A stretch of 64,000 nucleotides of DNA, taken from the NCBI GenBank assembly GCA_964577595.1, contig CAZNZK010000005.1, positions 10,885-74,884 of the forward strand. Reading direction: 5' to 3'. A program made the translations under genes and the position numbers. Below the pieces are notes generated by a model, which saw only the letters and a program-made list of their open reading frames with translations, searched no databases and was not told where the DNA came from. This DNA comes from an uncultured Candidatus Saccharibacteria bacterium. GTDB lineage: Bacteria > Patescibacteriota > Minisyncoccia > Phycocordibacterales > JAKAEA01. Shown in pieces: positions 6,140 to 29,647 of the stretch. Numbering within the stretch: position 1 is the stretch's first letter; each line of letters opens with the position of its first letter.

Positions 6140-6148
6140 TAAACTCCC

Positions 6149-13833: not shown

Positions 13834-14892
13834 ATGGTCAGCGCTTCTTCTCAGAAGAAAACCCTTAAGCCCATTCTGTGGATGTCCTTCGGGCCGATAG
13901 GCGACACGATGATGATGGTGGCCTTTTTTGACGACATTCTGCGCGTGCGGCCGGACGCCACTTTTACCGTGCTCACCAGCCGCAATGCGGCCGTGATTCG
14001 CGACCTGTGCCGGGCATACCCCTCCATAACGGTAGTAGAAATTCCTTCGCGTCTCGCAGCCGTGCCAGCGTTTCTGTTCAATATTTTCCGCAAGCGCTGG
14101 ATAGTACTCATGCCGGGCGTGGCGCACTATTATTCCACCCAGCTGAAAATTTTCTTTTTAGTGCTCTATTGTTTTCCGTGGATAACTTCCATCGGCTTCG
14201 GCGATATCCGGAAGCGCTTTGGCTGGCTGCCATTTCATACGGTTCTGCATTTTGATTTGTCGCGCACGGTGCTTCAAAATTATCGCCGGATGGCTCCTTA
14301 CTTTTTAGGCACGCCGATTCCACCCGAGCAGCTGCTTACGGCGAAGCTCGCCTTAAAAGCGCCCGCGAATTTTTCTCTCAAGAAGGGCGCTTATGTGGTT
14401 ATTCATATGTTTGGCAATAAGCGGCGGCTTTCGTTTCCCGACAGACGCTGGCGCGCGCTTACTATAGAATTAACGAAGCGCTACCCCAATTACCAGTTTG
14501 TATTTACCGGCGCGCCCAAGGACGCGCCCGCCATGGAGATAATCACCAAAGATATTCCGCGCACCACAATGCTCGTTGATTTGCCGATTTTGGAAGTCGC
14601 CTCCATTATTGATTCGGCCGCGCTTTATATTGGCGTGGATACGGGCATTACCCATTTGGCCGGCGTGATGAAAAAGAAAAGCGTGCTGGTGGAGAATAAT
14701 TCCAACCCGCTCTGGTGGCCTTCCTATAATCCCAATGCCACTATTTTGGTTAACAACAAGCGCTGTATTTGCAAAGGCGACAAAACCGACCAGTGTCGCG
14801 TGCTTGATGAAGACGGCACAAATTATTATCGTTGCACCTACGACATTACCGACCAGGCGGTTTTAGACGCCGTAGCCGCCGTTCTGAAATAA
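13834..14892 (+). CDS. Glycosyltransferase family 9 (heptosyltransferase-like)
   Basis: C-terminal VDTGITHLAGVM motif matches the GT9 DSGxxHxAAA signature. Confidence 0.6.
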   Translation: MVSASSQKKTLKPILWMSFGPIGDTMMMVAFFDDILRVRPDATFTVLTSRNAAVIRDLCRAYPSITVVEIPSRLAAVPAFLFNIFRKRWIVLMPGVAHYYSTQLKIFFLVLYCFPWITSIGFGDIRKRFGWLPFHTVLHFDLSRTVLQNYRRMAPYFLGTPIPPEQLLTAKLALKAPANFSLKKGAYVVIHMFGNKRRLSFPDRRWRALTIELTKRYPNYQFVFTGAPKDAPAMEIITKDIPRTTMLVDLPILEVASIIDSAALYIGVDTGITHLAGVMKKKSVLVENNSNPLWWPSYNPNATILVNNKRCICKGDKTDQCRVLDEDGTNYYRCTYDITDQAVLDAVAAVLK

Positions 14893-14910
14893 AATTTCAT
14901 ACAAAATTCC

Positions 14911-16023
14911 ATGCGCCTTATTTATTTAACCGGTCTCAACTATCCTTCAGCAATTGCTAATAACCAGCAGGTGATGGTGATGGCTGGGGAATTTCATACA
15001 ATTCTCGGTACTGGCGATTTTACGTTGATAGTGAACGCTTCGCGAACAGCGGGGGAATTTGCTGGTTTTCAGCCGGTGACTATTGGTTGCGGTTGGAAAC
15101 ACTTTCGTTTGTTCTACAGTGCCTGGTGGTTTTTCCGGCATGCAAAAGCACTTGTTAATGGCCGCCCCGATGTGGTGGTTTATACCAAAGATCCATATTT
15201 TTGCCTCATCAGTATTTTCTTCAAAAAAATCTTCGGCTACAAAGTAGTGTTTGAATCACACCTTTTATTTTCGCCGATGGTTGATTGGTTCATTGCTCGC
15301 TATGCCGACGCGATTCTCGTGCTGACCTCGCATTTGAAAACTGATCTAGTGGCGAAGGGTGCCTCGGCGCAGAAAATCGCCGTTGTTCCCGACGCTGTTG
15401 ATGTGGCAAAATTCAACCTCAATATTTCTGTTGCCGAAGCTCGGCAGAAATTACACCTGCCACTTGATAAAAAACTCGTCATGTATAGCGGAAGCCTCTA
15501 TGTGCATGAATGGAAAGGCGTGCCGGTGCTGTGCGAAGCCGTCCAGCTTCTACCGCCGGAATACTTAGTAGTGCTTCTGGGCGCTCGCAATGAGGCCGAG
15601 AAAAAACGGGCCGAAGAAGCCGGGAAGGGTAGGGTGCTGGTGGTGGAGCGAAAGACGCACACTGAAATTCCGCTCTATTTACAGGCCGCCGATGCACTCG
15701 TTTTGCCCAACACTCGCGGTAATGCCAATTCGGAAAAGTACACCTCGCCGCTGAAACTTTTTGAATATATGGCCGCCCGCCGGCCCATCGTCGCTTCCGA
15801 CTTACCTTCCATTCGCGAAGTGCTTTCTGAAAAGAATAGTTTTTTGGCCGAGCCTGGCTCAGCGCCGAGCCTGGCAAAAGCAATCGTTGCGGCCACAAAT
15901 AATTCTGGCACCGATTCTGGCCGTATTGTTGACCAGGCCTGGAACGATGTGAAAGACAAAACCTGGCATGCTCGCGCCGAAGACATCCTGGCTTTTATGC
16001 GCACAGCGATTACAATGAAATAA
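14911..16023 (+). CDS. Glycosyltransferase family 4
   Basis: GT-B C-domain LFEYMAARRPIVASDLPSIREVL. Confidence 0.7.
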   Translation: MRLIYLTGLNYPSAIANNQQVMVMAGEFHTILGTGDFTLIVNASRTAGEFAGFQPVTIGCGWKHFRLFYSAWWFFRHAKALVNGRPDVVVYTKDPYFCLISIFFKKIFGYKVVFESHLLFSPMVDWFIARYADAILVLTSHLKTDLVAKGASAQKIAVVPDAVDVAKFNLNISVAEARQKLHLPLDKKLVMYSGSLYVHEWKGVPVLCEAVQLLPPEYLVVLLGARNEAEKKRAEEAGKGRVLVVERKTHTEIPLYLQAADALVLPNTRGNANSEKYTSPLKLFEYMAARRPIVASDLPSIREVLSEKNSFLAEPGSAPSLAKAIVAATNNSGTDSGRIVDQAWNDVKDKTWHARAEDILAFMRTAITMK

Positions 16024-16033
16024 CAGTAAAACA

Positions 16034-16663
16034 ATGGCAAAAATTAGAGATTTCCTGACCGGCAAATTAACCCGCATCCCTTTGGACGCTTTCGTAAAGC
16101 GGCATGCTTCCGACGCCTACACTCTGGATGTCGGCTGTTCGCATTCGCCCTATTCGCAGTTTTTCAAAAACCGCGTCGGCTTTGACATCGCCCCCGGCCC
16201 AGGCGTTGATGTGGTTGGCGACGCCCATGCTATGCCTTTTGCCGCCAACACTTTTGACCTCATTGTGGCTACAGAAGTATTGGAGCACCTCCACTCGCCC
16301 TGGCTGGCCGTTGCCGAAATGCACCGCGTCCTCAAAAAAGGTGGCCATCTCCTCCTCACCACTCGCTTTTTTCAAGTTATCCACGATGCGCCGCACGATT
16401 ATTATCGCTACACCGAATACGGCTTGCGCTACTTGCTGGCCGATTTCAATATTGTTGAGCTTGATGAAGAATTTCCGCCCAAAAATACCATTGCCATGCT
16501 CATCCAACGCGCTGGTCTCAATAAAAATCTTCGGGGTGGCATTCTCGCTCGCGGCTTTTTCCTGGTATTGGCCCGATGTGTCTATGCTCTACCGACATTT
16601 TCTCGCCGCAAAACCGGTCATGCTTTCACTTCCGGCTACTACGTCTTCGCCGCCAAAAAATAG
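16034..16663 (+). CDS. Class I SAM-dependent methyltransferase
   Basis: LDVGCSHSPYS motif I and ATEVLEHLHSP. Confidence 0.7.
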   Translation: MAKIRDFLTGKLTRIPLDAFVKRHASDAYTLDVGCSHSPYSQFFKNRVGFDIAPGPGVDVVGDAHAMPFAANTFDLIVATEVLEHLHSPWLAVAEMHRVLKKGGHLLLTTRFFQVIHDAPHDYYRYTEYGLRYLLADFNIVELDEEFPPKNTIAMLIQRAGLNKNLRGGILARGFFLVLARCVYALPTFSRRKTGHAFTSGYYVFAAKK

Positions 16664-16684
16664 GCGAAATACCGAAAGGCAACC

Positions 16685-17863
16685 ATGTTCAAAAAAACCA
16701 GAGATACGATTAAAAATTACAGCCTGCTTGCTCTCTGTTTTTGCTACGCCCTTGTTCGCGGTTCCGCCAAAAAGCTCGGCACGGAAGTCAACAATATTCT
16801 CATCGTCCACGACGCTAAAATGGGGGATATGGTTTGCCTTACGCCCACCATTCGCGCCGCAAAGCAGGCCCGCCCGCAAGCGCGGGTGTTTGTGTACGGG
16901 AACGCTATTGGCCGGGCTATTCTCGCCGGGAACCAGGCGGTCGGCGGCTATATAGAGAGTAACCAGAACATGTTTGCGCTCATTAAAAGTTTTCGCCAAA
17001 ACAACATTGACTACGTCGCCATCGCCGCGCCCGACTTTCGCGCCGCCGCCATTGCTTTTTTAGCCGGCATCAAAACCATTTGTTGTTCCAACGTTGAAGG
17101 CGGTTTTTCTCCCTGGGAAACCGCGGCCTATGGCTTGCTCAAAAAACTGACGTTCCAGTATCCTCTGCGTATGAATTTTTACGCTCCCGCCGAATATCTC
17201 GGGGCTCTCGCGCCCTTGGGGAGCACTACAAATGCCGCGGGTATTACTAGTGCCGCAAGCTTCACCGACACGCGCAAAGAGCTCTACTATTCCCCGCAAG
17301 CCGCCGAGCGTATTAAGCAGTTTTTCGCCGAGCACCACCTTACTCCGAAAAAAGATTTCATTGTCGCTATTTCTCCCTCGGCAGGCAATAAAATAAAGAA
17401 TTGGCCGGGCGAGCGCTTTGCCGAAGTGGCCGCCTATGCCCATAAAAAGCACAATGCAAAAATCATCATCATCGGTAGCCGCGTAGACGGGCCTGAAGTT
17501 GAGGGAATGCTCCGCCACATGGCTCCGGGCGTGCCCCTTATAAACACCCTCAACCTCTTTTCAATTGACGAGCTCAAAGCTTTTCTTTCGCAAGTAAGCC
17601 TCTTGGTGGCCGTGGACACTGGGCCCATTTACATTGCCGAAGCTTTTGGTGTGCCGACCATTGATATCATTGGCCCCGTCAGTGAGAAGGAACAGCCGCC
17701 CATTTCCGCCATCCACAAAATTGTTTTTCTGCGCGACAGAAAAGCGCCTGCTGTGCATATCATGAACGCCCGCATCTACGACTCCGCCGAAGCCCGCCGC
17801 CAAGTTGAGGGGATTACTGTGGCGATGGTTGAGGAGGTTTTGGAGGAGGTGGTGGGGAAGTAG
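16685..17863 (+). CDS. Glycosyltransferase family 9 (heptosyltransferase-like), second copy
   Basis: VDTGPIYIAEAFGVPTIDIIGP GT9 signature. Confidence 0.6.
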   Translation: MFKKTRDTIKNYSLLALCFCYALVRGSAKKLGTEVNNILIVHDAKMGDMVCLTPTIRAAKQARPQARVFVYGNAIGRAILAGNQAVGGYIESNQNMFALIKSFRQNNIDYVAIAAPDFRAAAIAFLAGIKTICCSNVEGGFSPWETAAYGLLKKLTFQYPLRMNFYAPAEYLGALAPLGSTTNAAGITSAASFTDTRKELYYSPQAAERIKQFFAEHHLTPKKDFIVAISPSAGNKIKNWPGERFAEVAAYAHKKHNAKIIIIGSRVDGPEVEGMLRHMAPGVPLINTLNLFSIDELKAFLSQVSLLVAVDTGPIYIAEAFGVPTIDIIGPVSEKEQPPISAIHKIVFLRDRKAPAVHIMNARIYDSAEARRQVEGITVAMVEEVLEEVVGK

Positions 17864-17890
17864 TTTATTGACTGGTGGATAAAATTATTG

Positions 17891-17918
17891 TTGAAAAATG
17901 CTCAGGTGGTATTATAGA
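17891..17918 (+). promoter_or_regulatory. Weak sigma70-like promoter candidate (TTGAAA-16-TATAGA)
   Basis: Hexamers read from the sequence upstream of the ATG at 17948; weak match. Confidence 0.25.
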
Positions 17919-17947
17919 GTGAACTTTAATCATTTCTTATTAATAAT

Positions 17948-19609
17948 ATGCCTGATCAAAACCTGCTCAACTACATTAAAACCGCGCTCGCGCAAGGTAA
18001 GAGTCGCCAGGAAATTACGGCCACGCTTATGGCTCAAGGCGGTTGGACCCAGGCGGATATAGATGCTGTTTTTGCGACCTTGCCGCCAGTGCCGCCGTCA
18101 GCCCCAACGAATCCACAGGTTCCGTCATTCAAGCCGCAAGGAAGTGTGCCGCCGCTTTCGCCAATGAACGTATATACGGTTCCTGGTGCTGGTCAAAACT
18201 ATCGGCCGCAAAATTCTGGCTCGCACTGGCTTCTCGGCTTGATTACTTTAGCTGTCGCCTTGGTGGGTACGTATTTTAGTTGGTACGTATTGATCGGTAA
18301 TTCAACTGTGGCGTTATGGATTGCTGGTAGCATGGATGCTATTCTGCTTTTTGAAATTTTGTTTATTTGGATTATTGCCGCGCTTTTTCGGGTTCCCAAT
18401 AACTCATTTTCCAAGCCCTTACTGATTGGTGGTGTTCTTGGGGTGATGTATATTCCTGTGCTTTTCCTGTATTACAACGTTCCTGTTTTCTCTAGTATAG
18501 CGGGCGTTGTTGAATTTATCATCTATATCGTACTCTTGGTTAAGATATATGGGATTTCCATTGGCAAAAGTATTGGTATTGCTGTTGTTGCCGGTATTCC
18601 TACTATGATTGTTGCTGGGGTTATCGTCATGGCTTTGTTGTTTAAAGGACTCTTTTCTCTTGTTACGGTTGCTGAAAACTATAACGCGCAAAATGCGCAG
18701 ATACAAAATTCTTCGGCATCAAGCGTTATGATTGATTCAGATTCGCTTACTACCTCATCCGCGTTCCCGACAATTACCGGTATGACCGCTAATTTATCAT
18801 CAGTAAGCGTTGATGTGGATGGTTTTGTTCCAGCAAAGGGTGGTACTGTCGCCCTTTATGATGGCACGGTTCCTGTCGTAAATGGTGCGTGGTCTTTCAC
18901 AGTATCAGCATCAAATGCCGCCTTCGGCGGACCCCAAGGACTTGCGCCGGGGAACTATACTGTTGTTGTTGGAGCAACAGAAGCGGCGGCGCTTGCTAGT
19001 AGCACCCTCACTGTTTCAAACGGTTCGCAAATGCCGGCTACTAGTGTTGCGGGTATGCAGCAATACTCCGTGCCAGCGTGGCCGTTTACTATTTCCTATC
19101 CATCCGATTTTGCGCCTACCGATACCCTAACTACCGCGCAACAAAATTCAGTTGCTTCATATATGGGAACATGTTCTGTGGGGCCTGCCGGTCATTCTAA
19201 TGATGTTGCTCAAGTTCAGCTTTGCTACATTGGCACGCAAAAACCCGATGGCTTTGCGTCTGCAGGCGTAAATATTATGCCAAACCATGCTATAAGCGCG
19301 CAGGATTGCCAGAAACCGGAAGACAGCGGTAATACTTCATCATTGGCTTCACAAACAGCTACCATTAATGGCGCTACATTTTACGAAAACACATTCAGCG
19401 ACGCGGCCCTCGGCCACTATCTGTCAATCGATTCGTACCGGACATACCAAGGCGGCACGTGCTATACGGTAGACTTAAAATTTGAAACTGACCGAGGCAC
19501 ATCTGAAAAAGGGCTTAATGACCCTAGTTTTGCCGCGACAATGCAGGCGAAGTTGAAAGCAATTCTCTCTACGATTACATTTTCGCAGAATTCTGCAACT
19601 ATAAATTAA
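17948..19609 (+). CDS. Hypothetical membrane/surface protein with extracellular Ig-like region
   Basis: Soluble N-domain, a cluster of TM helices, then a Ser/Thr/Ala-rich extracellular region with a beta-rich segment. Confidence 0.5.
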   Translation: MPDQNLLNYIKTALAQGKSRQEITATLMAQGGWTQADIDAVFATLPPVPPSAPTNPQVPSFKPQGSVPPLSPMNVYTVPGAGQNYRPQNSGSHWLLGLITLAVALVGTYFSWYVLIGNSTVALWIAGSMDAILLFEILFIWIIAALFRVPNNSFSKPLLIGGVLGVMYIPVLFLYYNVPVFSSIAGVVEFIIYIVLLVKIYGISIGKSIGIAVVAGIPTMIVAGVIVMALLFKGLFSLVTVAENYNAQNAQIQNSSASSVMIDSDSLTTSSAFPTITGMTANLSSVSVDVDGFVPAKGGTVALYDGTVPVVNGAWSFTVSASNAAFGGPQGLAPGNYTVVVGATEAAALASSTLTVSNGSQMPATSVAGMQQYSVPAWPFTISYPSDFAPTDTLTTAQQNSVASYMGTCSVGPAGHSNDVAQVQLCYIGTQKPDGFASAGVNIMPNHAISAQDCQKPEDSGNTSSLASQTATINGATFYENTFSDAALGHYLSIDSYRTYQGGTCYTVDLKFETDRGTSEKGLNDPSFAATMQAKLKAILSTITFSQNSATIN

Positions 19610-19631
19610 ATCAGTATTATATTTCACCCTC

Positions 19632-20462
19632 ATGAAAATTTCTCAAAAAGGTTTTATTGTTCCGTTACTAATATTGTTAGTCGTTGTGATTGCTATTATT
19701 ATAGGAGCTTTTTTGTTTTTACAGTCATCACTCCCATCAGCTTTTAGTAACAATTCTCCGGCAGCACCCCCACAGAATCTCCTCACGTTGTCATGTGGCG
19801 CTAGTAGCTTCGTGATTTCAGGCGAACCATTCAATAGTACGAATTATCCGTTTGCTCATGATTATAAAATAAAAGTATCTATTTTGTTAAATGGCAAGTT
19901 GGTTCAGAAAGACACCGTAGACAAGACGTGGTCTGTTATCTACCCACCAATCCTACAGTCGTATAAAGATAAGTACGCTTCCACAAGTGTATATTTTTTA
20001 CCTGAACCGAACTTGAGTAGTTGGCAATCATCAGTAAATTATTTAAGCATTTACGTTTCATCGAAAAATTTTTCTGAAACTGAATATCGGGGCTTTGTGG
20101 ATTGCGTAAAAAATAACCAGCAAACGATCGATAGTGCCCTTAGTAAGACCTATACCATTCAGGTGGGTACATCAGAATTTCCAGCTACTACTTTTTATCA
20201 AGGTATCCTTATGGTGGCATACGGTAATCCGTATTCTGATACTATCTTGAATTGTCCGGATGAGGCTGGATATGTTACTAGTATCAACCCAGTCGGTTTC
20301 GTGATTCAAACAGACCCCGGCAGTAGTGGTATGGTGGGAAACATTATACTAGACGGGGGAAGGGAGGTATGGCAAGCTGAGTTCCCCTTAAATAATGCTA
20401 AATTAAATTCCTGCACGCTTCCTGACGGCACAAATTTTTTACAAAAATATCCACCAGTCTAG
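19632..20462 (+). CDS. Hypothetical signal-anchored secreted protein
   Basis: N-terminal TM (LLILLVVVIAIIIGAFLFL); AT-rich gene. Confidence 0.5.
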   Translation: MKISQKGFIVPLLILLVVVIAIIIGAFLFLQSSLPSAFSNNSPAAPPQNLLTLSCGASSFVISGEPFNSTNYPFAHDYKIKVSILLNGKLVQKDTVDKTWSVIYPPILQSYKDKYASTSVYFLPEPNLSSWQSSVNYLSIYVSSKNFSETEYRGFVDCVKNNQQTIDSALSKTYTIQVGTSEFPATTFYQGILMVAYGNPYSDTILNCPDEAGYVTSINPVGFVIQTDPGSSGMVGNIILDGGREVWQAEFPLNNAKLNSCTLPDGTNFLQKYPPV

Positions 20463-20502
20463 AGAACGTTACTGCTTCACTTACAAATTAATTAGAAATC
20501 CC

Positions 20503-21222
20503 ATGAAAACTGCTTCAAAACTATTTTTGATTTTATACGCAATATTCGGCGTACTTTCTATTCCCGGCGCGATAGCAGTCAGCTTAATGATTGGTCTCTT
20601 TGGAGGATGGATTCCCTTGATAATTATGCTATTGGTAATTGAGGTGCCGACGTGGGGATTTTTTCTTATCGCTTTCTTGTTCTATAAAAAACAAAAGTAT
20701 GTTGGGTGTTTTGTATTCCTGGCTCTTCCTTGCCTGGCATTGCTTGTGTCTGGTATTTATTATTTTCATTCCGTGCCTTCTAATTTTCGATCTCGCTCCA
20801 CCGTTGCGAGCGGGTTCTTAGTGCCATCTCCGCAGTCAGTCCCAACAGGTTTTCAAGCAACAAATCCCAGTTACACTAATGGCGCATATATAGCACGGTA
20901 TACCGACCCGTCAGTTCAGCCGTATGACGCATATATTGAGTTTGACGAAATTAAAAATCTCCCCGCACGCTACAACTACACATACACCGTTGGCCGGTGG
21001 GCACAATCTAGTGCCGATCAAAAAGTAACCAACTTTACCTTTGACAACCATCCAGGAGAAGTGCGCGTATATAACACTACTATCGGTTCAGAGAATACGA
21101 CCACTTACAATTTAGTTTGGGATGATAGTGGTTCCTTATTAAAAGTAACCTTTTTTGGCGTTTCGGCAATACAATCCCCGCAAGATGTTGTGAATGTTCT
21201 AAACACAATGGTTCGGAGTTAA
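20503..21222 (+). CDS. Hypothetical membrane protein
   Basis: Several N-terminal TM helices; no recognisable domain. Confidence 0.45.
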   Translation: MKTASKLFLILYAIFGVLSIPGAIAVSLMIGLFGGWIPLIIMLLVIEVPTWGFFLIAFLFYKKQKYVGCFVFLALPCLALLVSGIYYFHSVPSNFRSRSTVASGFLVPSPQSVPTGFQATNPSYTNGAYIARYTDPSVQPYDAYIEFDEIKNLPARYNYTYTVGRWAQSSADQKVTNFTFDNHPGEVRVYNTTIGSENTTTYNLVWDDSGSLLKVTFFGVSAIQSPQDVVNVLNTMVRS

Positions 21223-21225
21223 CCG

Positions 21226-21263
21226 CGTTACTGCAACGCACCCAGTGCCGCGATGGTTTGTGG
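21226..21263 (-). pseudogene. Relic 3' end of a PG-binding/amidase-like gene
   Basis: The reverse complement encodes ...PQTIAALGALQ*. It is 33/38 nt identical to the real 3' end of the amidase gene at 24427-24464, and the differences fall at wobble positions. Only ~19 codons remain open. Confidence 0.55.
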
Positions 21264-21269
21264 TATAAT
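21261..21269 (+). promoter_or_regulatory. Extended -10 element (TGgTATAAT), 8 nt upstream of ATG (leaderless-type)
   Basis: TGGTATAAT, then 8 nt, then the ATG at 21278. Confidence 0.45.
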
Positions 21270-21277
21270 TTTAAGCA

Positions 21278-22579
21278 ATGAAAACATCTAAAAAGGGCTC
21301 AGTGGTTGTAGTTTTACTAACCTTAATTGTCGTCGTCTTGGTTGTTCTTGGCGGTGTCTATATTTATTATCAAAACCAACCAAATCAAAGCGGTGCAGTC
21401 AGTCCGTCGCAAACAGAAGTGGCTAACCAGACACCCGTAGCGTCGGACAATCAGACCATTAACTCAAGCCAGGGTACTATTTCAACACCAAACACTCCTC
21501 CAACAGTTGGCTGGAACGTATTCACTAGTTCCTTGTACGGTTTTCAGATAAGTTACCCAAATACATATGGTGCTTATAAATATCAATCTGATGACAATGG
21601 TGGTGGTAGCTATCTGCCTATAACTACAAATACGGATATTGCAAAACTTTCCGGAATATATCAAGGTGTTTTCATCACTCTCCCTCAGGCAATTGCGGCA
21701 GTAAACAAAGCGGCTGATCCCTATGCTCTTGTACCGGCGGCATATGTAACAATACAAATATCTGTGACTAAAACACCTGGAGTGGGATATGCTAGCCTGG
21801 AACAATACAAGAATTTTGAGATCAGCAGTGATGCTACAGCCCAACAAAAATGGGTTTATAGCGACACGACCATAAATGGCCAGCCCGCTTTCAAAGAAAT
21901 TTTTACAAGCTCCAAGGGGACGTATTACAGATTGTCCTTATTCAAGGGTAATGCTCTGTACCTTCTTGATGTAGATCCAAACTCTTATACTCAAGATTCT
22001 GCGACTATTGACGCTATCGCAAATTCCTTTAAGTTTACAAATTCTGCAACGGCTGTTTCTTCCGCTACTGGCGTGACACAACCCGTAGCTCCGACCACCA
22101 ACACCACTTCCACCGCGGGCTGGAAGACCTACACTGATTCGCAGTATGGATTTTCGTTTCAATATCCATCTGCTCTTCCATACTCACTCTTTGCGTCTCT
22201 TAATGGCACACCGACTGCTCTTACTGCTTCTTCAAAAAATAACATTGATAGCAATGGTTGTTATGTCCCCAGCATCTATGCTGGAACAGAAAGGGCTGGC
22301 ACAACAGATTCTAACATCACTCTCAATAAAATATCTTTTTGTGCCTCAAATTATGGCGATCCCGGCGCTGGTCAACTATATACCGCTTACTCATATACCA
22401 CATATCGGAATGGTAACTATGTTACCCTCCAATACGTTGTTCACACACCAAACGGTTGCGGCGCGTATCAAGGAACCGATAAATACCAAGCATGCACTAC
22501 TTTCTTCCAGAGCGGTTTTAATACTGGCGTATTACAACCGATTCAACAGAGTGTCGCAACACTGATGTTTACTCAATAA
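21278..22579 (+). CDS. Hypothetical signal-anchored secreted protein
   Basis: N-terminal TM; two W-x-TYT-x-QYGFSFQYP modules. Confidence 0.5.
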   Translation: MKTSKKGSVVVVLLTLIVVVLVVLGGVYIYYQNQPNQSGAVSPSQTEVANQTPVASDNQTINSSQGTISTPNTPPTVGWNVFTSSLYGFQISYPNTYGAYKYQSDDNGGGSYLPITTNTDIAKLSGIYQGVFITLPQAIAAVNKAADPYALVPAAYVTIQISVTKTPGVGYASLEQYKNFEISSDATAQQKWVYSDTTINGQPAFKEIFTSSKGTYYRLSLFKGNALYLLDVDPNSYTQDSATIDAIANSFKFTNSATAVSSATGVTQPVAPTTNTTSTAGWKTYTDSQYGFSFQYPSALPYSLFASLNGTPTALTASSKNNIDSNGCYVPSIYAGTERAGTTDSNITLNKISFCASNYGDPGAGQLYTAYSYTTYRNGNYVTLQYVVHTPNGCGAYQGTDKYQACTTFFQSGFNTGVLQPIQQSVATLMFTQ

Positions 22580-22626
22580 AAAATCAATCTATTCACATAA
22601 GTCTCGCTATCCGTTAATTACTGACT

Positions 22627-23967
22627 ATGAATCCCAACCAAAACTATTCTAGCCCAATATCACCAACGCCGATTAGTAAGGGGAAGGTTTTTCTCGGACT
22701 GGTTGTCTCCCTAATTCTTGCCTTCGTGGCAATTTTTATTCCGAACTTACTAGTGGTCGCCCAACCCCTCTTCGCCCTCTTTTTTGCGGGCATACCTTTC
22801 GGTGTGTTTCTATTCAGTGGTGTAATTTTTATAATCCTAAACTTCATTGCTCAGAAAATATTCAGGAATTCTCCTTCTCTAAAGAAAGGCATGAAATGGG
22901 GTTATCTATTCATAATTATTGTCGCGGTTTTCTCGCTGTCAACTGATATTACTGCCTTGCAAAACATGAGTGCTCTGCAAGGCAGTTATGCCGCGTCTTC
23001 CAGTGGGGATGTCAGTGGTTGTCTTAAAGTCAACGATCCTTATGACAAAGATATGACGATAGATACTTGTCTTCAGAATATTCACGATCAAAAACCGGGC
23101 GATTCAACGATTTGCGACAGTATGATTACGGATTCAGCAAATCCAACAGACTTGATGCGAACGCAAAGCTTCAAACCTCAGTGTTATGACGATGTTAATG
23201 CTTGGAATGCCGCTAATTCGGGTGATATTTCTTTGTGTAAAAAAATGTCGTTCACCACGGATATTGATTCGTGTTACCAGACTGTTGCAATCAGAACAAC
23301 AAACTATTCTTACTGTCAAAATCTCTCTTCGCCTGATCTGGTGCAAAATTGTTACAAGGTTTTTCTACTAGATCATAAAACACCTCAATTTATGCAGAGT
23401 GTGTGCCCGTTGATAACCAATCAAACCTACTACGGATTAGCGGGGTGTACGGCGACTGGTGTGACACTGCCCGTAGCTCCGACCACCAACACCACTTCCA
23501 CTGCTGCTTGGCAAACATATACGAGCACCCAATATGGATTTTCAATGAAGTATCCTCAGGGCTGGAGCGTCACTGGTTCGCAACCACTTTCCTATGTTAA
23601 TCCACTTACCTTGTCAAAAACATTTGGTACTGGTCCCCAAGGATACACTTGCAGTTCAGTGGTTAGTTTGATTTCAACGAGCGTGCTTGATCAAAATGCT
23701 TCCGGATGGGGAGCAAAGACTCCTTTTGTGAGCGCTACTAATCGCTTAGTTGCTGGCTGGACTAAAAGTAATGACTTCCCTGGTACATTTGACTATTTTC
23801 TGAAAAATACGAACAGTCAGTATTCGTATCAGGTTTTTGATTCTACTCAAACTTTTGGAAGTTATAGTCAAGATCCTAACGCTGAAATAACCCCCTCAAA
23901 AAACATCTACGTAAAAGAATGTACGGATATTTTCTCCCAAATGCTCTCAACGTTCACTTTCATTTAA
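22627..23967 (+). CDS. Hypothetical membrane protein with Cys-rich extracellular region
   Basis: Three or four TM helices, a Cys-rich region, and the same PVAPTTNTTSTA-W-TYT-QYGFS-YP module as the preceding gene (32-nt identical stretch). Confidence 0.5.
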   Translation: MNPNQNYSSPISPTPISKGKVFLGLVVSLILAFVAIFIPNLLVVAQPLFALFFAGIPFGVFLFSGVIFIILNFIAQKIFRNSPSLKKGMKWGYLFIIIVAVFSLSTDITALQNMSALQGSYAASSSGDVSGCLKVNDPYDKDMTIDTCLQNIHDQKPGDSTICDSMITDSANPTDLMRTQSFKPQCYDDVNAWNAANSGDISLCKKMSFTTDIDSCYQTVAIRTTNYSYCQNLSSPDLVQNCYKVFLLDHKTPQFMQSVCPLITNQTYYGLAGCTATGVTLPVAPTTNTTSTAAWQTYTSTQYGFSMKYPQGWSVTGSQPLSYVNPLTLSKTFGTGPQGYTCSSVVSLISTSVLDQNASGWGAKTPFVSATNRLVAGWTKSNDFPGTFDYFLKNTNSQYSYQVFDSTQTFGSYSQDPNAEITPSKNIYVKECTDIFSQMLSTFTFI

Positions 23968-23973
23968 TAAAAT

Positions 23974-24315
23974 ATGAATAATCCGATTGCTACTCCGGCA
24001 CAAAAAGTACTTCGCATTTGTCGTATTGTCTTATTCATACTTACACCATGGAATGTGTTGGTAGGGTTGTTGCTGTTTGTGGGTTCTGATTTATCCCACG
24101 ACCCACAATCAATTTCGCTGTCAATCCCGCTATTCTCCCTTCTCCTTCTGGTATTTAGTATTATTTTAATAAATAAAATAGGACGATGGTTGTGTTATCC
24201 TGCCGCGGAATTAAAACCGGAGCTGCTTACTCCCATATTCATAGTAACGATCTTGGTCGTGATAGCGGCAATTATACCTACGCTAGTTGTTTCTGGTGTG
24301 TTTGGTAGTTTCTAG
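23974..24315 (+). CDS. Small hypothetical membrane protein
   Basis: Three TM helices; 113 aa. Confidence 0.4.
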   Translation: MNNPIATPAQKVLRICRIVLFILTPWNVLVGLLLFVGSDLSHDPQSISLSIPLFSLLLLVFSIILINKIGRWLCYPAAELKPELLTPIFIVTILVVIAAIIPTLVVSGVFGSF

Positions 24316-24428
24316 TTCTGGTATCTGGGTGGTAAACTTGTGGGGTGAAAAAACAACGGAACTACATTTTATTTTGTGACTCACCACTATTTATTTAACG
24401 GCAGCACGTTAGTAAGCACGCAGTAACG

Positions 24429-25706
24429 TTACTGCAACGCACTCAGTGCCGCAATAGTCTGCGGGCCGGCGAAGCCATTTTCCCCGGTGATATTTTGCTC
24501 TGTCTGAAAGTTTTGAAGGGCAACACGGGTGCAGGTGCCAAAGATGCCGCTTCGTGGGCAGGTATTATTTGTTTTGTCGTTGGGTGGATAGGTGCCAGCA
24601 TAGGCCAGGGCAGTTTGGAGGGCGAAAATGTCTAAGGCTGAACCGTTGGTGGCAGTAACTGGCGCGTTCCAGGTGTGGGGCAGAACGAGGGTGTCATAAG
24701 GGGTGGCAAGCTTGGCGGAGCTCGCCGGGTCAAAAAAGTCTTGAAGGCCGAGATAGGTTTGAAAGGCAAGGTCATTGAGAGCAGTGCTTCGGAGGGCGGG
24801 ATTGGTAAACTGGGCTTCATAGATGTAGCCATACTCAATGAGCATGCTGGCGGCATCGGCGGTATCGTAGGAACCGAGAGCGATGAGCTCGGGGTCGTCA
24901 ACGATGCCGCTGGACTCGGCGGGTAGGTTACTAACGGGATTGTACTTTTTTAAGCGGTTGAAAATGGTAGCGGCAACAGCTTTTGTGGTGGCGCTATTTT
25001 CATATTGTTCGGCCGGCACATACATAGCAAAGCCGGAGTATTTCCCGACATTCATTCCTTGGCGGCCAGCGTAATCGTTGAAATGAATATGGAGAACAAT
25101 GTCAATGTCGTTTTCATTGGCCCACTTGGTCATGCCATACAGGCGGGTGGCGCTGGCAGGCGGGGTAGAGAGGTGATCGATAGTTACGACAGGCGCGGTA
25201 ATTGCCCCAATTGCCACAAGGTGTGAAAACGACGCATATGACGCGTTTTGCCAGGCTTGAATATCGCTCCAGTTGTTCTGGAAATAACTGGTGAGTTCGG
25301 GGCTCCAGGCGGTATTGTCACGGGCGATGAATACTTGGTAATGAGTATTTGAGGCTAATAATTTCTGGAGATCCTGGCCGAGCTCCACGGTCATGTTTCG
25401 CTCTTTAAGCGAGCCGAATTCCGCGCCGCCAGAATCGGGGTTGTGGCCGGGTACGATGAGAATACGGACTTTTTTAGCCTGATTAGTACTTGTGTCGACG
25501 TAGTCGTTTTTGATTTGAGCGATTGTTCTGGGGTTGTGGCTGAGGATGACAGCAGCTAATTGTTCACCGATGTTTTCTACTGCCGAGACAATTGCTTGGG
25601 TTGCCTGTGGGTGGTCGTAGGCAAGTTGCGCGGTGACAAAAAGGGCGAGGCATGCAAATAGGCCGAACACGTGCACCTTTCTGAAATGCTTTTTCGGAGG
25701 TTCCAT
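24429..25706 (-). CDS. N-acetylmuramoyl-L-alanine amidase (Amidase_3) with C-terminal peptidoglycan-binding domain
   Basis: Signal peptide; ILIVPGHNPDSGGAEF and VLHIHFNDYAG Amidase_3 motifs; C-terminal GENGFAGPQTIAALSALQ PG_binding_1-like. Confidence 0.7.
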   Translation of the reverse strand: MEPPKKHFRKVHVFGLFACLALFVTAQLAYDHPQATQAIVSAVENIGEQLAAVILSHNPRTIAQIKNDYVDTSTNQAKKVRILIVPGHNPDSGGAEFGSLKERNMTVELGQDLQKLLASNTHYQVFIARDNTAWSPELTSYFQNNWSDIQAWQNASYASFSHLVAIGAITAPVVTIDHLSTPPASATRLYGMTKWANENDIDIVLHIHFNDYAGRQGMNVGKYSGFAMYVPAEQYENSATTKAVAATIFNRLKKYNPVSNLPAESSGIVDDPELIALGSYDTADAASMLIEYGYIYEAQFTNPALRSTALNDLAFQTYLGLQDFFDPASSAKLATPYDTLVLPHTWNAPVTATNGSALDIFALQTALAYAGTYPPNDKTNNTCPRSGIFGTCTRVALQNFQTEQNITGENGFAGPQTIAALSALQ

Positions 25707-25733
25707 TTTCTGTAAGTATACAATATTCAGTAC

Positions 25734-28328
25734 TTACGCCGCAGTAAACCACCTTCCAAAAGAGTGCACGCGTTCATCGAGGCGGGCATCGGCGAGGGCG
25801 GATTCTATGTTTTGTACTTGGGTTGGATTTTCCGCGAGGTTGGAAAGCAGAGTGACAAGCCCGAGGCGCTTGAGTTCTAAAGTGAGGGAAGTGACGGTGG
25901 CGTCGTTGGGAACTAGGCCAATAAGCTGACTTTGTGCGGTAGTGAAAGTAATGTGTTTGCCGGCAATATCTAAGCCGACACATAATCCTCCGGCAATAAT
26001 TGGGCGGATTTTTTGGGTGATGGTTGTGTCGGCGAGATTGTCGGTGATCGTGCCATTCAGGCCGGAAATGGTGAAGGTGCCATTTTTATAATCGCGGGGT
26101 TCTATGATTGTGGCTGGCACTTTTTTACCCGCAACAGAAAAGGTAATTTCAACGGCTGGCTTCCCGGCGCGTTTTTTGAGGCGCGCGCTTATGATAGGTG
26201 CATTATTCATAAGCGTTTTTATGAGTGCTATGCCGTGGTAGGCGTAGGCGGATTGGTTGAATGTCATGCTGGTGATTTCCGACAGGATTTCTTTTAAGGG
26301 TTGAATCCATGGCAAATACGCAGTGTCTTCGGCGGCCACGACGTGCGCGAAATTTTTGAAATATTTTTTATTGCCGAGATATTTTTTGGGAAAAACGGGG
26401 GTGTCTAAAATGAGGCCGATGGTGCTTGTGTCAAATTTTTCCAGGAAAGCGAGAACGGGGGCGACTTGGGCTACTGGCACGCCGACGTATATCCAGGCGG
26501 CTTTTCGCACAAGGTATTTGGGCAAATTGGGGAGGGGCACGACATCATAGTGCTTGGGGCCAATATAAATGCGGCGGGCTCCTTCCGCGTAGACGCCGGT
26601 GATTTCAAATTTTCCGGTTGCTTCTATGGCAGGAAGGACGTCGGTTTGGGCACGCTTGCCGGCACCGATGACGATAATATTTTTGCGTCCCGTTGTTTTC
26701 GCACGCTGTTTGGGTGCGGGCAATTCTTTTACATCCATTTTCTTTTTCAGAGTATCGGCAAGGCGGACAGCGAGAGCGCACATGGCGTAGGTTGGGTTGG
26801 CACAGCCGCTGGTGGGGAAAACGGAACCGCCACAAATGTACAAGTTGCTAACGGTGTGAACGCGAAGGTTGGCATCAGCTACGGATGTTTTCGGATCCTT
26901 GCCCATGCGTGTGCCGCCGAGGTGATGGCTGGCGTCAAAGTTGATGGGCCAGGGCGCGCGTTCGGCCAAGTTACTCTCTAGGGTGCCAACACCGTTCTTC
27001 TCCATTTCCTCGGCGAAAATGCGGTGGAGCTCAATGAGTGATTTTCTATCAAGGGCGGAGGTGTTCACGTTGACGGCGGGCACGGGCAGGCCGTTTTCGT
27101 CGCGCTCATCGGAAAGGGTTAAACGGTTTTCCGGCAGGGGTTCCATTTCCATGAAATTGCGCAGTTCGCCGGCTTTGGCGCGGAAGCCTTTTTTGCCACG
27201 AAGGCGGTAGAGTGCGAAGGCGGCAATGGTTGGTAGGTTTATGACGATGGAAAAATATTGAGCGAGGCGGCTCTCCTTTGCGGGTTGGTGTTTAATAATG
27301 CCAAGCAAAGCTTTGACACCTTTATTGTTGGTCCAGGGAAAAATGGGTTCAAGGCGGAAGTAGCTATTGAGGAGGCCGAGCTCGCGCTGAGCGCTTTCAG
27401 AAAGACGAAAACCAGTGTAGCCAACCCAGCCGTTTTTTGCATTGCCGAAAGGGTAGGGGATATTGTGCGGTGAGCCGCGCTTTAGGCGAAATGTGCCGAC
27501 ATTGCCTTTGGGATGATTCATTAAATAGCGGCCAACTTGGTCGCGCTCATTGCCGAGGCCGCTTGGGTTGGTGTCGCGGGAAAGCAAAAGGAGGCGCGCG
27601 CTTTCCAGGCCGCCCGCCGCCATCACGAATATTTTCGCGGAAATGGTGCGCTCGGTGCCGTTTTGGGAGCGGATGCTGGCGCTGGTGACGCTGACTGCGC
27701 CGCTAGTGTCGCGTGTTGAATTCAATTTAAGAACAGTAGCATCAAGCCAGAGGTCAACATTTGGCCCGTAAAAAATCCACTGATGTTTTTTGACGAAATC
27801 CCAGGGCGGCACGCTGGCGATGAAGCGCTTGCCGTTGAGGCGACTGGTGTTCACCAGCATATTGTTGCTATCGTCGGTGGTTTCAAAAAGAGCTAGGGGC
27901 GGGAAACCGTAAGCTGTGGTGCGTTCGTAAAAAGGCGCGAGCTCGGCCGCGCTTACTGGCCAGCCAGCAGGGTTAGAAAGAAACGGGCGAAATTCCAGGT
28001 CAATAGCATCCATGGGCGCACTGCCGCCGCCCCACATGAGCGTGGCGCCGCCGAGCACGCGTTCGCGCGAAGAGGGCTTGGTAGCTATTTCGCCGAGGTT
28101 TTGGACTTTGCGCAAGGCATTGCCGTAAGGGCTGGTTTTTAAGCTGCCACTTTCCAAAACGCAGATGCGTTTGCCCGCCATTTTCGTATCGGCCGCTAAT
28201 TCGGTGGCAAGAGTGATGCTCACCGGCCCAGCGCCAATAATGCAGATGTCGTAAGTTGTGTCGGAGGCTTGGTTTGCGGCGTCCTTCGGGATGTGGTGCT
28301 CTGCGTCGTCGGAATATTTTACCGCCAT
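25734..28328 (-). CDS. Fusion protein: GMC-family FAD oxidoreductase (N) + Gfo/Idh/MocA-like NAD-binding domain (C)
   Basis: DICIIGAGPVSITLATELAA FAD dinucleotide motif and HHLGGTRMG...NLYICGGSVFPTSGCANPT GMC C-terminal signature. A ~330-aa extension follows, starting NIIVIGAGKRAQTDVLPAIEA (Rossmann). ATG at 28328; GTG alternative at 28346. Confidence 0.6.
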   Translation of the reverse strand: MAVKYSDDAEHHIPKDAANQASDTTYDICIIGAGPVSITLATELAADTKMAGKRICVLESGSLKTSPYGNALRKVQNLGEIATKPSSRERVLGGATLMWGGGSAPMDAIDLEFRPFLSNPAGWPVSAAELAPFYERTTAYGFPPLALFETTDDSNNMLVNTSRLNGKRFIASVPPWDFVKKHQWIFYGPNVDLWLDATVLKLNSTRDTSGAVSVTSASIRSQNGTERTISAKIFVMAAGGLESARLLLLSRDTNPSGLGNERDQVGRYLMNHPKGNVGTFRLKRGSPHNIPYPFGNAKNGWVGYTGFRLSESAQRELGLLNSYFRLEPIFPWTNNKGVKALLGIIKHQPAKESRLAQYFSIVINLPTIAAFALYRLRGKKGFRAKAGELRNFMEMEPLPENRLTLSDERDENGLPVPAVNVNTSALDRKSLIELHRIFAEEMEKNGVGTLESNLAERAPWPINFDASHHLGGTRMGKDPKTSVADANLRVHTVSNLYICGGSVFPTSGCANPTYAMCALAVRLADTLKKKMDVKELPAPKQRAKTTGRKNIIVIGAGKRAQTDVLPAIEATGKFEITGVYAEGARRIYIGPKHYDVVPLPNLPKYLVRKAAWIYVGVPVAQVAPVLAFLEKFDTSTIGLILDTPVFPKKYLGNKKYFKNFAHVVAAEDTAYLPWIQPLKEILSEITSMTFNQSAYAYHGIALIKTLMNNAPIISARLKKRAGKPAVEITFSVAGKKVPATIIEPRDYKNGTFTISGLNGTITDNLADTTITQKIRPIIAGGLCVGLDIAGKHITFTTAQSQLIGLVPNDATVTSLTLELKRLGLVTLLSNLAENPTQVQNIESALADARLDERVHSFGRWFTAA

Positions 28329-28411
28329 ATTGGGCGATTGTAGCACGGAAATTTTTCTGATACTATCAATCTAATTGTGATTTGCGGTCGCTCTATTGCG
28401 TACTATTTTTC

Positions 28412-29647
28412 ATGAAAATTCTCATTCTTTCGGACGATTTTCCGCCGATGAGCTTCGGTGCCGGCGTGGTGGCCGCCAACCTGGCCGGCGAATATAAACG
28501 CCGCGGCGATGAGGTGATTGTTGTTACAACTGTTCGCGACAGTGCGCAGGGCGGCGTGGCAACATATGAAGGCATGAAAGTGCATCGTATCGTCACTTCT
28601 TACAATACTTTTTTTCAGGCGTACGTTGGCTTGTGGAACCCGGGGGTGGTGCGGCAAGTCAAAAAAATCCTGGCGGAATATAAGCCCGAAGTGGTGCATG
28701 CGCATAATTTGCATGGTTATCTTTCCTACATCTCGCTCGTGGAGGCCAAGCGTGCCGGCGCGCGGGTGATTGTGACTTGCCACGACGTTCTCTCTTTTCA
28801 TTATGGAAAATTCGTGGAATTTATTGACCGCTCCAGCACGGCTATTCCGCAGAGTTTTAATTACCGCATAAGCCCGTGGCGGCAACTGCGCGCATATCGT
28901 TTCCGCTACAATCCATTTCGCAATCTAATTATTAGAAGGATTTTTCGCAACCACGTTGATCACGTGGTGGCAGTGAGCAATACTTTGCAGGAGGCGATGC
29001 TGGCTAATGGTATTAAAAATGTCAGCGTTGTTCACAACGGCATTGACCCAGAGGCGTGGAAAGTTTCGGCCGAAGAATTGGCAGCGTTTAAAGATGCGCA
29101 CAACATTTCCAATCGCCGCATTGTGCTCTTTGGTGGCCGCTTGAGCGGGCCGAAAGGGGGAGCGGAAACTATTGCCGCCATGGAGCTTGTTTCAAAGGAA
29201 ATTTCCGATGCCACACTTCTGGTGGTGGGGCCAAAAGAGGGCTATGGGGAGACTATGGAAAAGCTGGCCACGCAAAAGGGTATTCACACCGTTTTTACGG
29301 GCGTTTTGGCTGGCCCAGGGCTTCACGCCGCCTATGCCGCCGCCGACGTGGTTTTGTTTCCTTCGGTGTGCTTTGATACCTTTGGAATGGTCAATATTGA
29401 GGGTATGAGCGCCCAAAAGCCGGTAGTAGCCACTTGCTTCGGGGGTGCCCCGGAAATCGTCCAGAATGGCGAAACGGGCTATATAGTGAACCCGTATAAC
29501 ATCGCCGATATGGCCGCCAAGATTAGCGCTCTTTTGGCCGACCCTGCCAAAGCGCGAAAAATGGGCGAGGCTGGTTACCAGCGAATGCTCGCCGCCTTTA
29601 CCCTCAAGCGCCAGGCCGATTCTTATTATGATTTATTTCATCACTAA
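28412..29647 (+). CDS. Glycosyltransferase family 4
   Basis: MKILILSDDFPP start and GT-B C-domain VNIEGMSAQKPVVATCFGGAPEIVQNGETGYIV. TTG alternative at 28382. Confidence 0.7.
   Translation: MKILILSDDFPPMSFGAGVVAANLAGEYKRRGDEVIVVTTVRDSAQGGVATYEGMKVHRIVTSYNTFFQAYVGLWNPGVVRQVKKILAEYKPEVVHAHNLHGYLSYISLVEAKRAGARVIVTCHDVLSFHYGKFVEFIDRSSTAIPQSFNYRISPWRQLRAYRFRYNPFRNLIIRRIFRNHVDHVVAVSNTLQEAMLANGIKNVSVVHNGIDPEAWKVSAEELAAFKDAHNISNRRIVLFGGRLSGPKGGAETIAAMELVSKEISDATLLVVGPKEGYGETMEKLATQKGIHTVFTGVLAGPGLHAAYAAADVVLFPSVCFDTFGMVNIEGMSAQKPVVATCFGGAPEIVQNGETGYIVNPYNIADMAAKISALLADPAKARKMGEAGYQRMLAAFTLKRQADSYYDLFHH

Follow-up and report, generated by a model that had tools for sequence, protein, structure and literature searches.

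In PMC5361080 (which cites Jackson et al. 2009 and de Vries & Wackernagel 2002), C-terminal, or 3'-end, displacement by homology-facilitated illegitimate recombination is proposed for Rhs loci and for the T6SS effector-immunity arrays of Vibrio cholerae. According to PMC13626634 (which cites Hill et al. 1989, PMC210168), the icd/icdC duplication of Escherichia coli K-12 flanks the cryptic prophage e14, and also phage 21. Here we analysed a stretch of 64,000 nt of DNA (the window) from the genome of an uncultured member of the Patescibacteria, in which a 38-mer occurs twice, once at the 3' end of an amidase gene and once, as a relic, on the far side of three membrane-protein genes (Table 1). 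Our best reading, which is reconstructed from a single genome and to which we assign a probability of roughly 0.45, is that recombination has left a scar in a low-GC island, itself part of a surface-glycan locus, and that the 38-mer lying apart from the amidase is a displaced and now dead copy of the final 11 codons and the stop of that gene.

Table 1. Features of the locus, numbered from the first letter of the window.
Feature	Position	Strand	Remarks
Low-GC island, six membrane/secreted-protein genes	17948-24428	+	Between GT9 glycosyltransferase gene and amidase
p239, membrane protein	20503-21222	+	Stop 5 nt from the relic's stop, tight convergent arrangement
Relic of amidase 3' end	21226-21263	-	11 codons (PQTIAALGALQ), TAA stop 21228-21230, 2 nt past stop; non-coding now
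Promoter-like motif GTGGTATAAT	21260-21269	+	Match to consensus only; contains extended -10 box TGGTATAAT
p433, N-terminally membrane-anchored protein	21278-22579	+	C-terminal domain, about residues 268-432, in large PsbP_2-like family
p446, membrane protein	22627-23967	+	Cys-rich region; weak PsbP_2-like domain start
p113, small hydrophobic protein	23974-24315	+	No family match
Spacer, p113 stop to amidase stop, 113 nt	24316-24428		Unlike p239 3' end or amidase 5' region
True 3' end of amidase	24427-24464	-	PQTIAALSALQ, TAA stop 24429-24431, 2 nt past stop; partner of the relic
Amidase gene, N-acetylmuramoyl-L-alanine amidase, 425 aa	24429-25706	-	Amidase_3 and C-terminal PG_binding_1

The relic (CGTTACTGCAACGCACCCAGTGCCGCGATGGTTTGTGG) and the real end (CGTTACTGCAACGCACTCAGTGCCGCAATAGTCTGCGG) are identical at 33 of 38 nt and their starts are 3201 nt apart. 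We reproduced the direct repeat as the preliminary description had placed it, together with its two translations, which are read from the minus strand. All five mismatches (21242, 21252, 21255, 21258 and 21261) are transitions, and the longest identical runs measure 16 nt and 9 nt. The repeat starts 2 nt beyond the stop codon and runs straight into the coding end, where the codons of relic and real end are CCA/CCG, CAA/CAG, ACC/ACT, ATC/ATT, GCG, GCA, CTG, GGT/AGT, GCG, TTG, CAG and TAA (single where shared). Thus four consecutive codons differ, each at the third position only and synonymously, while the fifth difference falls on a first position and exchanges G for S, a conservative change; 10 of 11 residues are identical and the relic retains both the stop codon and the reading frame. 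A 24-nt core of the repeat, searched with up to 3 mismatches, was found at these two sites only (none expected, from 100 shuffles), and in a local-alignment scan of the whole window the pair scored 56, the highest background score being 29, which rules out a chance match. An assembly artefact is likewise ruled out, since an independent Logan assembly (SRR8464963) yielded two contigs, corresponding to window positions 14503-22111 and 23472-28645, that are 100% identical over both junctions. The homology ends sharply with the 38 nt: we found none beyond it on either side, including between the 3' end of p239 and the 113-nt spacer.

The relic lies in the 55 nt that separate p239 from p433 and beside a promoter-like motif, a location that would suit a functional non-coding element present in two copies (a dispersed intergenic repeat, for instance, or a terminator, an RNA motif or the binding site of a regulator). 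One of the two copies is coding, however, and the 38-mer occurs twice in the window, not at all in 9 kb of extra flank (about 73 kb in total) and in none of 88 loci searched, related loci included; a peptide-degenerate DNA pattern for the ending TIAAL[GS]ALQ* gave no match in JGI metagenome contigs or IMG/VR. In the sequence searched it is thus not a common intergenic repeat unrelated to coding sequence, and with two copies and no stable fold it is unlike REP or MITE-like elements. No Rfam match was obtained, the folds are no better than those of shuffled sequence (z-scores -0.8 to +0.7) and a terminator scan called nothing there. An RNA element at the 38-mer was rejected on the Rfam and folding results, and we consider a non-coding element of any of these kinds extremely improbable.

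The real end closes an ORF with matches to Amidase_3 (E 5e-15) and to PG_binding_1 (31.6 bits over residues 359-421, the cut-off being 23), in agreement with the preliminary description, which had assigned it to an Amidase_3 gene. This amidase is widely conserved in Paceibacteria/Taylorbacteria-like Patescibacteria, and its closest non-self homologues among the matches listed are 57-59% identical. None of the 119 non-self homologues among the matches listed ends in AAL(S/G)ALQ*; the peptide ending is thus lineage-specific, and the relic derives from the amidase 3' end of its own lineage and not from a generic PG_binding_1 motif. The species itself was not found in GTDB representatives or in the JGI contigs searched. 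No simpler version of the locus was found in any related strain or species. The contigs that carry these genes are all identical or match at 99.99%, and the arrangement is the same wherever p239, p113 or the amidase is present; a strain variant without the module was looked for among these contigs and none was seen, the sole variant contig (99.99% identical) stopping short of the region. Just as p239 converges on the relic, in the three nearest amidase relatives a convergent gene lies directly downstream of the real amidase. A relic adjoining the amidase was found in none of 80 related loci, and neither was shared synteny. No compositional breakpoint was found within the amidase gene.

The preliminary description had gone further and argued that the relic descends from a once-functional paralog whose body gave way to the three-gene module (21278-24315). 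Spelled out, such a model would have two tandem, functional amidase genes on the minus strand; the downstream one would later have lost its body, with the module taking its place, and would have kept its last 11 codons. The derivation from an amidase and the synonymous nature of four of the five differences stand, and such a bias would follow from past selection on both copies; the relic also has the orientation of the amidase and sits downstream of it, and one related genome holds two amidase homologues, though on different contigs (L004 and L048). The functional paralog and the replacement of its body are less well borne out. No amidase body, start or upstream remnant lies between the copies, and tblastn of the amidase against the 64-kb window gave only the 12-codon match. 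A second amidase within 10 kb was present in none of the 80 related loci, and among the homologues listed no extant gene ends in GALQ. Moreover, this course requires three events (duplication, long coexistence and near-exact replacement) where displacement requires one. The synonymous bias itself is only suggestive of coding constraint (p about 0.05-0.1): under random substitution, five differences would leave at most one amino-acid change and the stop intact with P = 0.06-0.10. A paralog fits the data no better than would an allele of a different strain or the original, displaced end of the amidase gene itself. In view of the absence of a second amidase from the 80 related loci, we regard the replaced paralog as rather unlikely, and less favoured than a displacement scar.

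The same figures bear on whether a second functional gene was involved at all. The present amidase end could have been duplicated in situ, by staggered-break repair, template switching or as filler DNA, and could then have drifted mostly neutrally with no second functional gene. The short duplicated length, 38 nt, would suit such an origin; the probability of 0.06-0.10 under random substitution leaves the synonymous bias indecisive, and in our own calculation a mixed model, in which the real copy is constrained and the relic is free, gives P of about 0.10. On the other hand, the relic's stop and frame are intact and in four consecutive codons the difference is confined to the third position; by our calculation at least four of five differences fall on that position with P = 0.045. 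No repair or transposition mechanism known to us yields a target duplication of 38 nt, which also counts against a local duplication. On balance we hold this origin to be quite improbable.

The GC content of the island is 0.36-0.49, against 0.50-0.55 in its flanks, and the relic lies in the interior of the island and not at its edge. The two halves of the island are alike, with low GC and the same types of genes, within a glycan-biosynthesis locus. No donor of the module was identified: in a word-indexed search of 5.8 billion clusters p446 matched only itself, and the matches of p433 to other proteins are through the common PsbP_2-like domain only, at no more than 56% identity. No integrase, transposase, recombinase, excisionase or tRNA was found in the insert or in the 64-kb window (recombinase families were searched in the three insert proteins and in ORFs of at least 150 aa). 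The module gave no PHROG match and no blastn match in phage or plasmid collections, and the ends of the insert showed no inverted repeat. A repeat that is 38 nt long and imperfect, with neither a transposase nor terminal inverted repeats, does not resemble the target-site duplication of a transposon.

Direct repeats derived from the amidase 3' end nevertheless flank the insert and the gene is intact, as would be seen after site-specific integration of the e14/icd type, in which a small element carried an att site mimicking the amidase 3' end, the 38-mers being attL and attR and the integrase being lost or acting in trans. The geometry is that of icd/icdC around e14 as described in PMC13626634 (citing Hill et al. 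1989): after the intact end of the gene comes an insert, and then a displaced C-terminal piece that differs by synonymous changes. The identical runs of 16 nt and 9 nt could act as a crossover core, and a 16-nt perfect palindrome, GCAGTAACGTTACTGC (24420-24435), extends from the spacer across the real stop codon. Set against this are the missing integrase, recombinase and excisionase, in the insert as in the 64 kb, the lack of phage or plasmid similarity and of any PHROG match, and the absence of the peptide pattern from IMG/VR. That a relic adjoins the amidase in 0/80 relatives implies that the site is not a recurrent att site, and the position of the relic, mid-island and away from either edge, is also unfavourable. 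The palindrome is unremarkable, since the window holds two perfect 16-nt palindromes where about one is expected by chance (an estimate), and as a candidate recombinase site it was set aside as uninformative. Integration of this type is, in our judgement, unlikely.

A bolder extension would make the amidase 3' end and GCAGTAACGTTACTGC a recurrent docking site in this lineage of Patescibacteria, to which self-promoted surface-protein modules were added serially by a recombinase encoded elsewhere, so that the island (17.9-24.4 kb) would be an integron-like accretion array with decaying relics. We give this very little credence. The palindrome is absent from all other loci. If the docking-site reading were true, AACGTTACTGC (20465-20475), an 11-nt exact match to the site in the spacer between p276 and p239 that was equalled in 2 of 1000 shuffles in the pairwise comparison, would be an older relic. 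As a third relic, however, it was rejected, its score of 22 being below that of many chance matches (23-29) in the window-wide scan.

We return to the scar, of recombination or insertion, that the upstream copy marks, as the preliminary description had also seen; the relic is now non-coding and derives from the amidase end of the lineage. An intact amidase is followed, downstream and in the same orientation, by an orphan 3' fragment, as in C-terminal displacement. Two DNA segments would have been joined at the amidase 3' end, leaving the 38-mer behind. One segment would comprise p239 with the genes upstream of it, which converge on an amidase end; the other would comprise the promoter-bearing module p433-p446-p113, the 113-nt spacer and an amidase end. 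If one partner carried its own amidase 3' end, the intact PG_binding_1 C-terminus would be kept and the other copy stranded 3.2 kb off. The likeliest process would be recombination between two diverged versions of a variable island, with one crossover anchored in a conserved flank, on the amidase or the glycosyltransferase side, and the other junction formed by an illegitimate join at 21259-21264, possibly via TG(Y)GG microhomology; such a process may be named homology-facilitated illegitimate recombination, or '3'-end displacement'. At 13% divergence homologous pairing in the putative anchor gene would be inefficient. Codon preference gives a hint, resting on two codons (ACC and CAA), that the relic may be the native end. 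Because the databases hold no close relatives, we only infer the mechanism, and with it the direction of the event (the incoming half), the source in another strain or at another locus of the same genome, the anchor and the illegitimate join, and the activity of the promoter.

The breakpoint at 21263/21264 is sharp, with a possible overlap of 4-5 nt (TG(Y)GG) between the amidase end and the recurrent promoter motif GTGGTATWAT. GTGGTATAAT straddles this breakpoint. Within it, TGGTATAAT matches the extended -10 box perfectly and stands 8 nt 5' of the ATG of p433 (21278), in agreement with the habit of this genome; 21260-21269 was not called in a two-hexamer promoter scan, as the -35 box is missing. 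The origin of the final 4-5 nt of the relic (21259-21263) is ambiguous. It had been claimed that the end of the relic contributes the promoter of p433. The candidate promoter holds by its consensus, but the contribution of the relic is less certain: since the GTGGTATWAT class of 10-mer recurs at 17906 and 61186, each time 5' of a plus-strand gene, the GTGG may belong to an incoming promoter and overlap with the relic by microhomology only. By its position the relic sits just 5' of the putative p433 promoter and perhaps overlaps it.

The scar is of an ordinary recombination type and does not reveal a new mechanism, and the relic is probably without a function of its own. What it offers is a breakpoint resolved to the base pair, which shows the lineage-specific membrane-protein block beside the amidase to be composite; the block was apparently assembled, within a surface-glycan locus, by recombination that involved no mobile-element genes. 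As close relatives are lacking the finding cannot be generalised, and it stands as a small data point on how the reduced genomes of Patescibacteria may diversify their surface proteins. The direct repeats could also permit a rare loop-out of the module, which would regenerate an amidase ending in GALQ.

Compared with known systems, the locus resembles a pseudogene fragment of a tandem paralog in holding a copy of a gene end that is short and non-functional, keeps the frame and lies near the functional gene, and departs from it in having no further trace of a paralog and no tandem amidases in any of 80 relatives. The resemblance to icd/icdC is that the insert supplies a substitute 3' end of a housekeeping gene while a C-terminal pseudogene fragment lies at its far end, that the copies differ mainly synonymously, and that recombination between them would restore a chimeric functional gene. 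However, the 15-kb prophage e14 carries an integrase of its own and excises after SOS induction, whereas the insert here consists of 3.2 kb of membrane-protein genes without mobility or phage genes. As in the Rhs and T6SS displacements, a conserved gene has a complete 3' end and a co-oriented, older 3' fragment of it is stranded further downstream; new genes separate the two ends, no recombinase is involved and the setting is variable and surface-related. Unlike in those systems, the two ends are near-identical (10/11 residues) and are not alternative toxin domains, the stranded piece is just 11 codons long and is a single displaced copy without an array, and the intervening genes are not cognate immunity genes but lie on the opposite strand and encode PsbP_2-like or orphan membrane proteins. 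Taken together, homology-facilitated illegitimate C-terminal displacement and icd/icdC at prophage e14 are the closest analogues of this locus.

The two 38-nt segments of the preliminary description were confirmed by alignment; they are identical at 33 of 38 positions, lie 3201 nt apart from start to start, and differ at 21242, 21252, 21255, 21258 and 21261, all five differences being transitions, with identical runs of 16 and 9 nt and the rest shorter. A local-alignment scan of the whole window gave the pair a score of 56, the background reaching 29 at most, and the 24-nt core (up to 3 mismatches) was found at these 2 sites only, 0 being expected from 100 dinucleotide-preserving shuffles. The downstream copy is the minus-strand end of an amidase ORF, whose domains confirm the Amidase_3 assignment made earlier. 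It reads CCG CAG ACT ATT GCG GCA CTG AGT GCG TTG CAG TAA, and the upstream copy, here called the relic, reads CCA CAA ACC ATC GCG GCA CTG GGT GCG TTG CAG TAA on the same strand, the two being separated by four third-position synonymous changes in four consecutive codons and one Ser/Gly change. We found 1394 amidase homologues at E <=1e-10, the named ones belonging to Candidatus Taylorbacteria, Paceibacterota or Patescibacteria. The top match was an identical fragment, and the best of the others reached only 57-59% identity, which, the same strain apart, is about the amidase identity of the nearest genome in the collections searched, and because these hold no closer genome the history is inferred from a single sequence. 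The 119 non-self homologues listed follow the C-terminal pattern ...G.KT(I/L)..LN..(F/Y)..., usually with a few residues more, and none of them ends in ...QTIAAL(S/G)ALQ; the source of the relic is therefore the amidase type proper to this lineage, not a PG_binding_1 motif in general. It is a genuine gene-end remnant, correctly described as such from the outset, and it marks a recombination join.

Features around the amidase gene end and its upstream copy
Feature	Position	Strand	Details
HAF-repeat protein gene	11885-12850		TIGR02913, E 9e-73; inside glycan locus
55-nt unit, four copies	12068-12518		within HAF-repeat gene; spacing 129-138 nt
GTGGTATWAT	17906-17915; 21260-21269; 61186-61195	+	intergenic, upstream of plus-strand genes
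Low-GC island	17948-24428		between GT9 gene and amidase; GC 0.36-0.49, flanks 0.50-0.55
AACGTTACTGC	20465-20475		p276/p239 spacer, 2 nt past p276 stop
p239	20503-21222	+	membrane protein
Relic	21226-21263	-	copy of amidase end
TGGTATAAT	21261-21269		extended -10 box, 8 nt upstream of p433 ATG
p433	21278-22579	+	module gene
104-nt direct repeat	22064-22167; 23452-23555		inside p433 and p446; 77% identical
p446	22627-23967	+	module gene
p113	23974-24315	+	module gene
GCAGTAACGTTACTGC	24420-24435		perfect 16-nt palindrome
Real amidase end	24427-24464	-	downstream 38-mer
Amidase ORF	24429-25706	-	425 aa; Amidase_3 and C-terminal PG_binding_1 (residues 359-421)
GMC oxidoreductase gene	25734-28346	-	870 aa; GMC_oxred_C, residues 403-526

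The homology stops 2 nt beyond the stop codon at one end and at 21263/21264 at the other; outside the 38 nt, local alignments of the flanks scored no higher than those of shuffled sequence. When the window was searched with the full-length amidase by permissive tblastn, the 12-codon match was the only one, and the 113-nt spacer that follows the real stop was similar neither to the 5' region of the amidase nor to the 3' end of p239. A coding-derived relic with such sharp limits bears out the earlier view of a recombination or insertion scar. The relic and its junctions are no artefact; identical sequence is present on an 83-kb ENA contig, and an independent Logan assembly of run SRR8464963 gave two contigs, 100% identical to window positions 14503-22111 and 23472-28645, which cover both repeat junctions. 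These contigs end only at the 104-nt repeat common to p433 and p446, which encodes a linker and domain start found in both proteins, GVT(Q/L)PVAPTTNTTSTA(G/A)W(K/Q)TYT..QYGFS..YP, and since both break inside it, this repeat is a likely trouble spot for assembly and recombination.

Other readings of these sequences were rejected. The relic gave no Rfam match, folded no better than shuffles and had no terminator called, which spoke against a functional RNA or terminator; a common intergenic or dispersed repeat was dismissed, since the ~73 kb covered hold 2 copies and the other loci none, and target-site duplication was rejected as the origin of the pair. The palindrome, centred just outside the amidase stop codon, is 1 of only 2 in the window, about 1 being expected by chance by our estimate, and is not special. 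An exact 11-nt match to the amidase stop region (AACGTTACTGC), considered as an older relic, was not above background in a window-wide scan.

Four of the five differences are synonymous, as had been noted, and the probability of at least four of five falling at codon position 3 is 0.045 by our calculation, in a test that rests on five differences. Keeping the stop with at most one amino-acid change has a probability of 0.10 under random transitions and 0.06 under a 2:1 transition:transversion model, and by our calculation it is about 0.10 if drift is limited to synonymous sites in the real copy and unconstrained in the relic. Divergence of the two copies under coding constraint is likely, but as evidence of a once-functional paralog the bias is only suggestive (P 0.045-0.10). 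Such a paralog, a second, tandem amidase whose body was replaced by the three-gene cassette, had been proposed in the preliminary description; it is a possible source of the relic, but it requires more events, a second amidase was present within 10 kb in 0 of 80 related loci, and tblastn detected no other amidase remnant in the window, leaving the replaced paralog unsupported. ACC and CAA, which the amidase body prefers (23:6 and 14:7), are the codons of the relic, and the current end has ACT and CAG; these two codons give a small hint that the relic may be the original end of the amidase gene.

The window is a large surface-polysaccharide locus encoding GT1, GT2, GT4 and GT9 glycosyltransferases, methyltransferases, a Wzy_C ligase, a Wzm/Wzt-type ABC transporter, an MBOAT protein, a polysaccharide deacetylase and GtrA; genes for MurB, a two-component system, ribonucleotide reductase and RNase J come next within it. 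It also holds the HAF-repeat gene. In a second sample (ENA ERZ27245399 k141_3176025) a 99.99% identical strain has an FkbM-type methyltransferase gene, matching window ~1105-1980, called in two pieces (112 + 130 aa), which points to a putative disrupting point mutation in the glycan locus. The low-GC island holds six plus-strand genes in the order p553, p276, p239, p433, p446 and p113, with the relic after the third; the gene products all have hydrophobic N-termini and are membrane or secreted, lineage-specific proteins. The relic lies in the island interior, in the 55-nt p239/p433 spacer, its stop and that of p239 being convergent and 5 nt apart; in the three closest amidase relatives a convergent gene, different each time, lies directly downstream of the real amidase. 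The p433 C-terminal domain belongs to a large PsbP_2-like family (779 representatives at E <=1e-3), with a PF18933 match in 15 of 30 aligned members. p446 has the start of this domain in common with p433 and no homologues elsewhere, p113 matched no family, and weak similarity (E 0.05-0.09) suggests that p553 may share the domain with p433 and p446. The GMC protein has a C-terminal extension of ~330 aa without family match, and its gene and the co-oriented amidase are together the sole minus-strand block within a long run of plus-strand sequence (1-24315 and 28382 onward). The contig of the closest amidase relative (ENA ERZ27282971 k141_83861) carries, about 4 kb upstream of its amidase, a weak SMODS-domain gene (5516-6490) beside an AAA_14/DUF4143 gene, a pair that may represent a Patescibacteria defence island.

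The relic had also been credited with the p433 promoter, and a perfect extended -10 box, TGGTATAAT, does lie over its edge. Shine-Dalgarno sequences were scarce in our reading of the regions upstream of 58 ORFs, and 13 of these had a -10-like hexamer, TANNNT, 6-9 nt before the start codon, with a peak of 6 ORFs at 8 nt, the other offsets having about 1.5 each; the amidase, p276 and p433 are among those with the 8-nt spacing, which the GMC gene shows at an internal ATG. A leaderless p433 transcript is therefore plausible, and the pattern suggests that leaderless transcripts may be frequent in this Patescibacteria genome. The motif GTGGTATWAT, a candidate strong promoter of this genome, occurs 3 times against 0.16 expected, so the GTGG attributed to the relic may instead be part of the promoter of the module itself. 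If so, the promoter and the end of the amidase, where the real copy has TGCGG, would overlap by 4-5 nt of microhomology at the join, and the 21261 difference might be no relic difference.

An intact gene end, an insert and a stranded same-orientation copy of that end is the geometry of site-specific integration with 3'-end substitution, as seen at prophage e14 with icd and its fragment icdC (PMC13626634, citing Hill et al. 1989). This origin is disfavoured, as recombinase and mobile-element content are absent (no integrase, transposase or tRNA in the whole 64 kb, no PHROG match for the island proteins, no similarity of the module to phage or plasmid records), a relic lies beside the amidase in 0 of 80 relatives, and the one here is mid-island and not at an island edge. 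We favour the joining of two diverged versions of the GT9-amidase island, one partner bringing an amidase end, which would have occurred through 3'-end displacement by homology-facilitated illegitimate recombination, a process put forward for Rhs loci and for the T6SS effector arrays of Vibrio (PMC5361080). The join is favoured because mobility genes are absent, the two halves of the island resemble each other in composition and in the type of genes, the surroundings are a hypervariable surface locus, and the breakpoint is sharp, with possible microhomology. The relic scar is of an ordinary kind, a fresh instance of a known phenomenon, its geometry being common to icd/icdC around prophage e14 and to 3'-end displacement at Rhs/T6SS loci.
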